A stretch of 64,000 nt of DNA, taken from NCBI GenBank assembly GCA_022729235.1, contig JALDAJ010000001.1, positions 736,001 to 800,000 of the forward strand, read 5' to 3'. Source of the stretch: Candidatus Nanohalarchaeota archaeon. Its GTDB lineage: Archaea > Nanohalarchaeota > Nanosalinia > Nanosalinales > Nanosalinaceae. The notes under the pieces are model-generated. The model did not search any database. It was not told the origin of the DNA and saw nothing but the letters and a program-made list of their open reading frames with translations. Below, piece by piece: positions 28,105-62,362 of the stretch (positions are counted from its first letter, which is position 1; every line of letters starts with the position of its first letter). Position numbers and translations under genes: made by a program.

Positions 28105-28470
28105 TTAAATAGAGAAATTACGTAGGAGTGAATTCAGCCATGATGAATCATCCAGAGCGCTCTTAAGCTCATTGATTGTCTCTTCTTCGTAAGGACCGAG
28201 AGATATTGTTCCCGTGTATTCTCTATTCTGTCCGTTGTCCTGTACATGTAGTTTGTCGTGTCGATCAGGGTCATCGGTTTCTCTGACCTCTGCATAGAGC
28301 CAGCCATCTCTAGGTGAATAGTCGAGGAATAGAGAAGAAGGGATTTCGCCGGTCCGATCTGGGACTAGGATACTATGTAGTGTAGGGAAGTCTATAGTTC
28401 CTTCTGCTTCAGTTTTATAGGTTTCAGTTGTATGGTCTTGGGTATAGTCTTGGGATATTTCGATCTCCTT
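28105..28470 (-). pseudogene. 121-codon acidic reading frame lacking a canonical start codon
   Basis: Manual translation (K)EIEISQDYTQDHTTETYKTEAEGTIDFPTLHSILVPDRTGEIPSSLFLDYSPRDGWLYAEV...LLRNFSI*; purine-rich SD-like GGGAG before AAG at 28470. Confidence 0.55.
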
Positions 28471-28510
28471 TCTGCTCCCTCTCCCCTGGGAAAAAGTACT
28501 TTACATTTGT

Positions 28511-59430: not shown

Positions 59431-61536
59431 CTACTTAACCTCACTCCCTATTTCCATTTCTTCTTCTGTTCCTAGCAGTGCTACGTTGCCGTCTTCGTCT
59501 TCTGCAGCGAGCATCATGCACTCGCTCTTCTCTCCCCGCAGTTCGGATGCTTCGAGGTTGGCTAGTACCACTACCATGCGTCCTTCCAGCTCTTCTGGTT
59601 CGTAGTGGTTGACGAGTCCGGCACAGGTCTGTAATTGCTCGCTTCCAACATCTATCTGGACTTTGTACAACCTGTCCGCGTTTGGATGTTCCTCTACTTC
59701 AATTATTTTTCCTATCCTGATGTCTATTTCCTGGAATTCTTCGAATGAAATCTCGTCTGTCATTTTGACACCCTCTGTTTCTTCATCTTGTTCCTCTTCT
59801 TTTTTATCCTCTGCATCGACCTTTTCAAAGAGTACTTCTCGCTCGCCGAGCTCGTGACCGGATTCGATTCCGCCTAGAAGAGGGTCGATGAACTCGTCGT
59901 AGCCTTCCTCGGCGTGTATATCCGTGTCTAGCATATCCTCTATCTTCTCCGAGGCTTCTGGTGTGAATGGGTACAGTAACACGGCGAGTCCTCTAACAAT
60001 CTGTACTGCGACCTGTAGCACTGCTTCTCTCCTGTCTTCATTGTTCCACGGTTCTTCCTCGCTTAAGTATTGGTCGCCGAGTCTCGCAAGTTCTAGCGCC
60101 TTGTTTAGTCCTTCACGAAGATTATGGTCTTCAAACGCTTCCTGGTACTCATCTACTATCTTCTCGGCGCGGTGGATAGCTTCCTCGTCTGCCCTCTCCA
60201 GTTCCCCAACAGGTACTTCGTTGTCGAACCATTTCTCGGTTAATGCGAGCGTCCGGTTGACGAAGTTGCCGACCGTGTCGTTGAGGACGTTATTGATCTC
60301 GGATTCGAAGTCGTCCCAGGAGAACGTGGTGTCCTGTCCCTGCGGCAGGTTGCGTGATAGGTAGAACCTCCAGTAATCTGAGGGGTACATGTCCAGTGCT
60401 TCCTCAGTGGAAAGCCCTTTACCCCGCGACTTCGAGAACTTGGTGTCTTCCGCGAGCAGGAACTCCTGGATGAATTCGTAGTAAGGCATTGTGTACTGTT
60501 CTTCTTCTGTCGAGGCACCTATCAGCATCGATGGCCAGATAACGGTGTGGAATATGGTGTTGTCCTTGCCGATTGAGTAGTATACCTTGCTCTGGTAGTC
60601 TTTCCAGTACTTCTTCCATGTCGCATCGGCTTCGCCGCTGCTTTCGTGACCTTTTTCGGCAAAAAGCTCACGTGTGAATCCGATGTATCCTATCGGCGCG
60701 TCGAACCAGACATAAAGCACCTTGTTATCGTATCTCTCTGGGTCGAGCTTCTGGACGTCGAGTCCTTCGTTTTCTATTCTTTCGTTGACTCTTTCTGAGG
60801 GTATTTCGAAGCCCCAGTTGATGTCTCTCGTGATGCACCGTTGTTCTGTTCCCTCGATAGCGTTCCTGACCTCTTCTATCTTCGAGTCAGGTACTGGCTG
60901 TGTATCCGCCTCTTCCAGCCATTCGTTCAGCTTGTCCTTGAACTGTGGCAGATCGAGGAACAGGTGTGTGGTGTCCCTGAACTCTATGTCGCGCTCGCCG
61001 CAGATCTGGCACTCCGGCTCGATTATCTCTTCTGGTTCAACTAACTTTCCGCAGTCATCGCATTGGTCGCCCCGCGCTAAACCTCCACAGTGCGGGCATT
61101 CACCTTCGATGTACCGGTCAGGTAAGAAGCGCTCGTCGTTTAAACAGTACGGCAGGTTCTGCTCTTTCTCTTTTATGTAACCCGAGCAGTAAAGTTCTTC
61201 GAACATGTCATGTGTCTGTTTCCGGTTGTACTCGCTGTGCGTGTCCGAGTAGATGGAGAAGTCCATGTCCATACGTTCCAGGACTTTTTTCACTTTCTCG
61301 TGCTGCTCCTGTTTCAGTTCTTCCACCGGGATTCCGCGTTCAATAGCTTCCAGTTCCAGCGGTGTGCCGTGCACATCACTTCCGCAGACGTAGATGTTAT
61401 CCGTGCCTTTCAGGTCAAGGTAGCGGTGGAATATATCCGCGGGGAGAAGGCTTCCTACGATGTTTCCAAGGTGAGGTACTCCGTGGATGTACGGCAGTGC
61501 CGATGTAACAGTTACGCGTTCGTGTTCGAAGGTGAT
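59431..61536 (-). CDS. metG: Methionine--tRNA ligase with C-terminal tRNA-binding domain; start codon non-canonical or miscalled
   Basis: The frame extends 54 codons beyond the track ORF to include TSALPYIHGVPHLGN (HIGH motif); Zn knuckles, YVWFDA, IGKDN, KFSKS, HPNAD.L domain; bounded upstream by an in-frame TGA. Confidence 0.95.
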   Translation of the reverse strand: MTFEHERVTVTSALPYIHGVPHLGNIVGSLLPADIFHRYLDLKGTDNIYVCGSDVHGTPLELEAIERGIPVEELKQEQHEKVKKVLERMDMDFSIYSDTHSEYNRKQTHDMFEELYCSGYIKEKEQNLPYCLNDERFLPDRYIEGECPHCGGLARGDQCDDCGKLVEPEEIIEPECQICGERDIEFRDTTHLFLDLPQFKDKLNEWLEEADTQPVPDSKIEEVRNAIEGTEQRCITRDINWGFEIPSERVNERIENEGLDVQKLDPERYDNKVLYVWFDAPIGYIGFTRELFAEKGHESSGEADATWKKYWKDYQSKVYYSIGKDNTIFHTVIWPSMLIGASTEEEQYTMPYYEFIQEFLLAEDTKFSKSRGKGLSTEEALDMYPSDYWRFYLSRNLPQGQDTTFSWDDFESEINNVLNDTVGNFVNRTLALTEKWFDNEVPVGELERADEEAIHRAEKIVDEYQEAFEDHNLREGLNKALELARLGDQYLSEEEPWNNEDRREAVLQVAVQIVRGLAVLLYPFTPEASEKIEDMLDTDIHAEEGYDEFIDPLLGGIESGHELGEREVLFEKVDAEDKKEEEQDEETEGVKMTDEISFEEFQEIDIRIGKIIEVEEHPNADRLYKVQIDVGSEQLQTCAGLVNHYEPEELEGRMVVVLANLEASELRGEKSECMMLAAEDEDGNVALLGTEEEMEIGSEVK

Positions 61537-61594
61537 TCACCTAGGGAAGTCTATGAAGGCAATTCTTTAAACAGCTTTCTTGTGTGACCTTGTG

Positions 61595-62362
61595 CTAGAT
61601 AATCCGTCTCTGTAGTTTTGCAAGGTTGGAGATGCCGTAGTCCGGGATCTGCATCTCGTCCGCATTCTTGAGTGTTTCTGAGTCTATGTCGCCGGACATG
61701 ACGGCTGCGGTCTTCATTCCCAGGTGGTTCCCGGTTTCGATATCTGCTAATCGGTCACCGATGAATATGGAGCGGTCAGGGAAGTAGCTGAAGTGTTTCT
61801 TGAAGTATTTCCTGAATATCTTCCCGGGTTTACCCGCGTCTACGGGTTCGGCGAATTCCTGGAGAGCGAGATTGACAGGTCCCTGGTGAGGCTGTTCTCC
61901 GTGGGATGTGCGGAATGTTTTCTCATTAGAGCAGATGTAGAGCTCGCCGGAACGCGCTATCCTGACGGCGCGTTTGAGCTTTGCGTAGCTGAAGTTCCTG
62001 TCGAAACCTACGACGACGATATCCGCGTCCTCGGAAAGGTAGATGTCACGTTTCTCGAGTTCCTCGATAAGACCGGATTCTCCTATTATGTATGCCTGGT
62101 TAACGTCCCTGTCTTCCAGGTGTTTCGCGACTGTATATGCGGAGGTTATGATGTCTTCTTTTTCGGCAGGGATTCCCATCGATGTCAGTTTCTTGGCGTA
62201 ATCTTCCCGTGTAAGTAGTGTGTTATCGGTGTGGAAATGGATTTTCTTTCCAGCCTCCCTGAGCGAATCGATGGTGTCTTCTGCCCCGATTATGGTTTCG
62301 TCCCAGTTCCAGAGGGTTTTATCCAGGTCGAAGAAGAAGTTCCTGAATTCATCTAGGTCCAT
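61595..62362 (-). CDS. HAD-superfamily IIA (NagD-like) phosphatase
   Basis: FDLDKTL, TDN, AGKP, IGDRLADI. Confidence 0.9.
   Translation of the reverse strand: MDLDEFRNFFFDLDKTLWNWDETIIGAEDTIDSLREAGKKIHFHTDNTLLTREDYAKKLTSMGIPAEKEDIITSAYTVAKHLEDRDVNQAYIIGESGLIEELEKRDIYLSEDADIVVVGFDRNFSYAKLKRAVRIARSGELYICSNEKTFRTSHGEQPHQGPVNLALQEFAEPVDAGKPGKIFRKYFKKHFSYFPDRSIFIGDRLADIETGNHLGMKTAAVMSGDIDSETLKNADEMQIPDYGISNLAKLQRRII

Follow-up and report, generated by a model that had tools for sequence, protein, structure and literature searches.

Translation table 11 permits ATT, ATC and ATA as start codons, and infC is subject to autoregulation by IF3. The AUU codons of infC and pcnB are described as the only two confirmed non-canonical starts in Escherichia coli (bioRxiv 10.1101/063800), and the aEF1A mRNA of Pyrococcus abyssi is given as an example of Shine-Dalgarno (SD)-dependent archaeal initiation at a GGAGGUGA-type site (PMC6237735). 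Here we analysed metS, the gene for methionine--tRNA ligase (MetRS), in a 64,000-nucleotide stretch of DNA (the window; positions 736,001 to 800,000 of the forward strand of contig JALDAJ010000001.1, assembly GCA_022729235.1) from a Candidatus Nanohalarchaeota archaeon. This gene has no ATG, GTG or TTG ahead of its HIGH-type motif, and comparison with related genomes argues for an SD-led AUC or AUU (AUY, Y being C or U) as the metS start of the family; at the corresponding place this genome has UUC. Family metS resembles infC and pcnB in its strong SD at normal spacing, in a conserved codon that departs from AUG at the third base and in belonging to the translation apparatus. It differs from them in that it works with the archaeal aIF1/aIF2 system, that the start type occurs in several unrelated genes and that in this genome the codon is UUC, with two mismatches. 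With the P. abyssi aEF1A mRNA, metS shares an SD core complementary to the 3′ end of 16S rRNA and a similar spacing, but examples of that type use AUG, unlike metS here. The listings and few passages returned by a literature search held no description of AUY starts in Nanohaloarchaea or of a non-AUG metS start in prokaryotes. The family AUY rule joins the known kind of SD-led AUU start, and the UUC, GUC and UUU cases described below would be new if confirmed.

The genome is a single contig of 1,027,595 bases with 48% G+C, and metS occupies 59431–61530 on the minus strand of the window, which amounts to 699 codons plus TAA when counted from the proposed start, with the stop at 59431. HIGH and KMSKS motifs are the defining signatures of class I aminoacyl-tRNA synthetases, and both are present in the translation of metS, as HLGN (61462–61473, minus strand) and KFSKS (60427–60441, minus strand). 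The product matched the NCBIfam equivalog profile NF001100 over its full length, with 643.5 bits against a cut-off of 587 (E 4.4e-193), and metS is single-copy, being the sole strong MetRS match in the genome in the profile search. The closest database MetRS proteins carry source names such as Candidatus Nanohaloarchaea, Nanosalina, Nanohalobium and similar. Upstream, the metS frame is closed by an in-frame TGA (61539–61537, minus strand), after which it reads ATC ACC TTC GAA CAC GAA CGC GTA ACT GTT ACA TCG GCA CTG CCG TAC, corresponding to ITFEHERVTVTSALPYIHGVPHLGN. The first in-frame canonical start codon is a GTG (61372–61374, minus strand), from which the longest canonical open reading frame (ORF) has 647 aa. 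As this GTG is located behind the HIGH motif, it is unusable as the metS start. The missing canonical codon before the HIGH motif, the in-frame TGA and the GTG at 61374 were all as described in an earlier reading made from the letters of the window (the sequence-only reading). Because the NF001100 match begins at residue 5 when residues are counted from ATC 61536 (residues 5–701 against profile positions 4–676), the N-terminus is expected within one codon of TTC. The 5′ intergenic space is limited by a same-strand 255-aa ORF (61595–62362), whose TAG stop lies at 61595–61597. Reading of the TGA as a sense codon was rejected, as the frame upstream of it (TAA AGA ATT GCC TTC ATA GAC TTC CCT AGG) has no canonical start; in addition, a TATA-like box sits within that frame.

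The 16S rRNA of this genome ends in ...GGATCACCTCC, which makes AGGTGA (61537–61542, minus strand) a six-base SD match; the anti-SD of Nanohaloarchaea is tabulated as UCACCUCC (PMC10783764). These six bases contain both the in-frame TGA and an out-of-frame GTG (61540–61538), and GGTG[AGT] is kept in 41 of 44 family orthologues. Six nucleotides (ATCACC) separate AGGTGA from TTC (61528–61530, minus strand), the proposed non-canonical start, which aligns with ATC, ATT or ATG in orthologues. The sequence-only reading had correctly noted that this spacing equals that of tbp, where GGTGA is followed by 6 nt and ATG (window 7243–7230). It also lies within the range of the ATG genes of the same genome behind GGTG[AG], in which spacers of 5, 6, 7 and 8 nt occur in 14, 26, 12 and 9 cases, 6 nt being the commonest. 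A TATA-like box, TTTAAAGA (61564–61571, minus strand), starts 30 nt before the first G of GGTGA; of the 40 family loci with a GGTG motif, 33 have such a box 29–33 nt ahead of it. By the archaeal promoter distance rule, the metS transcript would start at or just before the SD, with a leader of only ∼11–14 nt. The GTG at 61540, to which attention had been drawn for its distance from the TATA box, opens a 41-aa ORF, and both elements are present. The SD is also part of an inverted repeat, AGGTGA-A-TCACCT (61542–61537 and 61535–61530), which exists as claimed and forms a 5-bp hairpin. We treated this AGGUGA/UCACCU hairpin as chance rather than as a regulatory element: the 63-nt metS 5′ region was not more stable than its shuffles (z = +0.52), and among orthologue 5′ ends the repeat recurred, by eye, only in G024.

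A search of the order for metS matched 61 of 70 genomes at E ≤ 1e-20, and the 5′ ends of 59 were read; G009, with its match at a contig end, and G038, with a split match, were omitted. For the organism's own family (44 genomes, this one included), the codon was sought 5–9 nt behind GGTGA, GGTGG or GGTGT. In 31 of the 44 genomes, the stretch from the nearest stop upstream to the conserved strand contained no in-frame ATG, GTG or TTG. The codon found behind the SD was ATC in 20 genomes, ATT in 15, ATG in 3, TTC in this genome alone and GTC only in G005, the rest being three genomes of genus g21 with an ATG but without the motif and G013 with a GTG adjoining it. ATC or ATT stood at this spot in 35 of 44 genomes and 17 of 20 genera, with spacers of 7 nt (18 genomes), 6 nt (13), 5 nt (3) or 8 nt (1) from the SD, and four to five codons before VTVTSALPY. 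Its recurrence in these 35 family genomes makes the layout of SD, spacer and codon more than chance. Two genomes offer no start other than ATC: G067 reads CAG GTG TCT TAG ATC GAA GAA AGA AAA GTT, with TAG directly before ATC, and G008 has a TAA two codons ahead of its ATC (in this sequence, read by eye, D replaces G in the motif). Among 25 further unique metagenome 5′ ends, 18 had ATY and no canonical start, and one (L134) had GTC.

The residues around the start codon vary (TIS, KIN, PIA, FIA, KIT, EIS) while the codon remains ATC or ATT, and in several relatives this alignment position is occupied by M (MSDRKVTV, MAERKVTV, MEERKVTV). Within genera g2, g11, g17 and g20, C and T are swapped at the third position, where A never occurs. 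Inside family metS genes, ATA accounts for 266 of 870 Ile codons (31%), yet for 0 of 35 at the start position, which is an indication rather than a test because the relatives are not independent. In several lineages (G010, G055, G051 and genus g21), ATY has been replaced by ATG. NCBI records P0029 (Ca. Nanohalococcus occultus), P0031 (Ca. Nanosalina sp. VS9-1), P0002 and P0035 start with M on the ATT or ATC of L020, L010, L004 and L041, respectively; they represent the same gene with the same SD-N6/7-AUY layout. Such MetRS starts in nanohaloarchaeal records are annotation choices and not experiments, and the TTC of this genome permits no such call. Of the 120 database proteins listed, about 25, from callers restricted to ATG, GTG and TTG, start only behind SALPY or HLGN. 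Overall, the alignment of related metS 5′ ends, which had been proposed as a check, revealed a non-canonical start conserved in the family and orthologues that are not all canonical, and it argues for an SD-led AUC or AUU as the family start of metS.

The start type was not confined to metS. We scored 1151 ORFs of this genome by codon log-odds and sought GGTG[AG] followed by 5–8 nt and an in-frame codon without an earlier canonical start. As upper bounds, this gave 46 SD-led starts with ATG, 14 with GTG, 7 with TTG, 5 with ATT and 4 with ATC, so that AUC and AUU make up about a tenth of SD-led starts. Seven hits combined a non-canonical codon with a clearly coding-like stretch ahead of the first canonical codon. 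Three have ATT (C1 1002237; 173368; 441299–442714) and three have ATC (C1 983461; 177356–178546; 549924), each 6 or 7 nt behind GGTGA, and the seventh is metS with TTC. In the gene for the RFC large subunit (RFC-large), Rad17/AAA Pfam matches begin at residue 2 and the first canonical codon is codon 25; in another gene, the Pfam domain Pyr_redox_2 begins at residue 12 and the first canonical codon is codon 26. These data suggest that, among the SD-led start codons of this genome, AUC and AUU are a minor but regular class. Reading of 30 family RFC-large loci placed an ATC at SD+6 right before WTEKYRP in G000 (this genome), G004, G051 and G055, and an ATG or TTG three codons upstream in most of the remaining loci. 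As the start type of RFC-large differs among loci, AUY starts come and go in the family.

Besides RFC-large and the Pyr_redox_2 protein, which is dihydrolipoamide-dehydrogenase-like, the genes with AUY starts include a T2SSF/FlaJ-like membrane protein and a zinc-finger/coiled-coil protein; those with GGTGA, 6 or 7 nt and ATT or ATC are L063–L068, and weaker cases lie at 956759 and 320632. The RFC-large start alternates by genus (L074–L102) between ATG-ATA-GAx-GTx-TGG, TTG-ATA-AGC-ATC-TGG and ATC-TGG at SD+6. An RFC small-subunit gene (MWVEKYRP) lies within ∼1.5 kb of RFC-large in at least 12 of the 30 loci and keeps ATG there. In the first 400 kb of G058 (915,886 bases), one strong ATA and one weak ATC candidate stood against 22 SD-led ATG starts, and the AUY habit appears rarer in that part of G058. 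A glycosyltransferase-like gene of G058 (G058:C1:25024-26190, minus strand; L183–L202; IDLTVVIPTYNEKENL...) has an ATA that follows GGTGG and 6 nt, with 74 codons to the first canonical start; it may have an ATA start, a codon never found at the metS start position.

Together, these observations suggest a model in which the SD AGGUGA, and not a canonical codon, would set the translation start of metS. The family norm would be an AUC or AUU placed 6–7 nt behind GGUGA on a very short leader, with a TATA-like box ∼30 nt ahead of the SD. In the lineage studied here, the AUY codon would have changed at its first base, so that the codon fixed in the P site by the SD is UUC (61530), at which initiator Met-tRNA would start inefficiently to give (M)EHERVTVTSALPY.... 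We regard SD-positioned initiation at UUC, in a metS that would be a working single-copy gene, as the best reading for this copy and give it a probability of about one half; UUC would then be decoded by the initiator tRNA. The sequence-only reading had named a non-canonical start (ATC or TTC) among its options, and the SD-positioned one at TTC gains support from the aligned codon, which is ATC or ATT in 35 of 44 family genomes and ATG in 3.

A canonical or AUY start is also missing from four further sequences: G005 and G042 with GTC, G026 with TTT and L134 with GTC TTC, all behind GGTG[AG] at +6. UUC is to UUG, and GUC to GUG, as AUC is to AUG, and an SD-fixed D-U-Y codon (D being A, G or U) covers all five non-AUY cases, this genome included, and fits the family rule. 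Tentatively, nanohaloarchaeal ribosomes may accept D-U-Y besides D-U-G, that is, AUC and AUU, with GUC, UUC and UUU working less well and AUA being excluded; the metS of this genome would then truly start at UUC. It is conceivable, at a similarly low level of confidence, that this widened set would apply 6–7 nt behind GGUGA at the extreme 5′ end of a short leader. In Nanohaloarchaea/DPANN, the uS5 hairpin that lies at the mRNA channel has been described as carrying an insertion, and the same study ties this region to start-codon selection (10.64898/2026.06.17.729505); we speculate that relaxed third-base reading is a lineage trait of the small subunit that is linked to uS5. For E. coli, initiation at non-near-cognate codons is reported to reach 0.01–1% of that at AUG and to yield products that begin with Met (bioRxiv 10.1101/063800).

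The idea that starts are relaxed because aIF1 has been lost was rejected, as a gene with a SUI1 domain (76.3 bits against a cut-off of 25.5) and a normal ATG start is present. The tRNA-Met gene at C1 614996–615073 has anticodon CAT and, by eye, an A1:U72-type end and three G:C anticodon-stem pairs, and inspection of this gene by eye revealed no unusual initiator tRNA features. In this genome ARAGORN predicted 15 tRNA genes without introns and 35 with introns allowed, many of the predicted introns being long (40–203 nt), including that of an elongator-type tRNA-Met at 92052–92328.

Several points weigh against initiation at UUC. TTC differs from ATG by two bases, so that the codon is not a one-base near-cognate here, as it is in 35 of 44 family genomes, and to our knowledge a start of the UUC type has had no experimental demonstration in archaea. 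In no other gene of this genome does TTC, GTC or TTT at SD+6 precede a coding-like stretch; the only TTC to do so is that of metS. The factor aIF1, said to discriminate against non-canonical starts (PMC6237735), is present, as described above. Members of families f3 and f5 usually have an in-frame GTG in the arrangement GTG-xxx-xxx-TTC/GTC/TTT, and there the hydrophobic fourth codon (TTC, GTC or TTT) is an ordinary residue. P0001, the nearest relative in the databases (83% identical over 120 residues), starts MVAFEHDRVTV, with F at the TTC place and an in-frame start three codons before it. Finally, each of the five non-AUY cases belongs to the one frame class whose reading frame would be rescued by a +1 shift from the GTG, and three of them (G000, G026 and L134) have C-CUU-Y at that spot.

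As the usual form in f3 and f5 has an in-frame GTG, G026 and G042 are one-base-longer derivatives of it. In L057 (G026) and L053 (G042), which belong to another family of the order, an extra base lies right behind the otherwise in-frame GTG and turns GGTGT or GGTGG into GGTGA, so that SD+6 is occupied by TTT or GTC and a canonical start is missing. The GTG frame of G026 reads CTT TAG and resembles a +1 site of the prfB type. P0001 and this genome differ by one spacer base, since the start of P0001 falls where the TGA lies here, and the TTC would be inherited, as P0001 shares F at the same position.

Programmed +1 frameshift sites occur at CUU-UGA in bacterial prfB and at CUU-AGG-C in yeast Ty1, and the alternative that survives best against SD-positioned initiation is of this kind. 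Translation would start at GUG 61540, leaderless or on a leader of 1–2 nt, and slip by +1 at C-CUU-CGA (CTT CGA, 61526–61531, minus strand), where tRNA-Leu(GAG) would move off CUU onto UUC as the rare CGA stands in the A site, to give MNHL-EHERVTV.... The GTG frame here reads GTG AAT CAC CTT CGA and so contains a slippery CUU followed by a rare A-site codon, CGA being the rarest Arg codon (2.8 per 1000 codons). The genome has tRNA-Leu(GAG), which by pairing rules should fit UUC as well as CUU, and also tRNA-Arg(UCG). The TATA-like box 30 nt before GGTGA predicts a transcript start at or next to the GTG, and exactly a +1 shift is needed in all five non-AUY cases: in G026 the frame GTG ATC AGC CTT TAG enters the metS frame after a +1 slip, and L134 has AGT CTT CAA at the equivalent place. 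The likeness to prfB and Ty1 lies in a P-site CUU, a slow next codon (CGA here, UAG in G026) and an upstream SD-like element. Unlike in those sites, the slip site is placed four codons into the frame and is unconserved among family members, and 5 nt separate the SD-like element from CUU, as against 3 nt in prfB.

In the 35 ATY genomes, however, the GTG of GGTG stands in frame +2 in 18, in frame +1 in 13 and in the metS frame in 4, and neither the slip site nor the frame relation is conserved among these orthologues. The GTG frame ends after 2–5 codons in several genomes (GTG AAT TAA in G007, GTG AAC TGA in G017). The occurrence of GTG in all three frames therefore fits the stretch of 5–8 nt from SD to ATY being an untranslated spacer and, together with the TAG between GTG and ATC in G067, favours SD-led AUY initiation over frameshifting. 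Moreover, in the GTC cases G005 and G042 the slip would have to occur at AGU-C, with poor re-pairing, and a leaderless GUG would be a weak start. Frameshifting, which the sequence-only reading had also considered, is thus not supported as a general mechanism on account of the three frames, the early stops and the TAG of G067; what stands is a possible slip at C-CUU-CGA in this genome only, and we consider that this copy is unlikely to be translated in this way.

Even less credible is initiation at the near-cognate AUC (61534–61536, minus strand) right behind the TGA, with the product M-TFEHERV.... This AUC is the first in-frame codon after the stop, AUC serves as a start elsewhere in this genome, and the annotation pipeline PGAP picked the equivalent ATA in Ca. 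Nanohalovita haloferacivicina, where P0040 begins MFIADEER and matches L018. However, the codon lies 0 nt behind GGTGA, as against 5–8 nt for ATG genes, its place is taken by ACC, AGC, TTA, ATT or ATA in relatives, and we know of no route by which an AUC five bases from the transcript end would be recognized.

It is also improbable that the weak start is kept for metS-specific feedback of the infC kind, acting through the supply of charged initiator tRNA. Such a role would fit the retention of AUY for metS in 17 of 20 genera, when AUC occurs in only 4 of 30 RFC-large loci, and the C/T interchange without A in the four genera named above. However, at least six unrelated genes of this genome share a GGTGA+6/7+ATT/ATC start, and as other genes use the same start type, autoregulation specific to metS is not needed to account for it. 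Nor is selection against ATG evident, because ATG took over from ATY in several lineages (G010, G055, G051 and genus g21) without visible harm, and no conserved structure was found around the metS start, the hairpin being unconserved.

A sequence error or damaged allele with poor or no expression, arising from one extra nucleotide behind the GTG or from the replacement of A by T in an ATC, would explain the 1-nt length difference by which the P0001 start MVAFEHDR falls at the TGA of this genome, but it is very unlikely and the suspicion of a single-base error was not borne out: P0001 shares the F codon position, no homopolymer between 61531 and 61540 is longer than 2 bases, metS is single-copy and essential with the remainder of its 699-codon frame intact, an out-of-frame GTG of the same kind occurs in 31 of 35 ATY family genomes, and run X1, as assembled by Logan (word depth 14), has the same sequence over 61000–62000, although this agreement is not independent support because X1 is probably the same sample as the assembly (the Logan contigs of X2 and X3 do not cover 61374–61575).

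Two other frames with unusual 5′ ends were seen in this genome. A methylpurine-DNA glycosylase gene (G000:C1:167109-167832, plus strand; L071) matches Pur_DNA_glyco over residues 10–186 with its first canonical codon at 57; its frame is preceded by ATG CCC TAA TCA AAG, with an in-frame TAA as third codon after the ATG and with neither SD nor ATY, and this may reflect read-through of the stop, damage to the gene or a start of another type. In the window, a 131-codon frame at 28105–28500 (minus strand; modest coding score of 14) contains no ATG, GTG or TTG and lies tight between two same-strand genes; no relative of this orphan ORF was found among the 49 other family genomes searched.

If AUY starts are indeed used in this family, gene callers that accept only ATG, GTG and TTG would shorten MetRS in many nanohaloarchaeal records and at least six other genes of this genome, and the proteomes of these symbionts would therefore be systematically mis-started. 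The share of AUC and AUU among the starts of this genome would be far above the two confirmed AUU genes of E. coli, and the family would offer a natural system for studying how a mismatch at the third base is accommodated by aIF1 and initiator tRNA. UUC, UUU or GUC at the start of the essential metS gene in five independent sequences would, if confirmed, represent a limit case of start-codon recognition; alternatively, the locus may hold a new natural archaeal +1 frameshift site.

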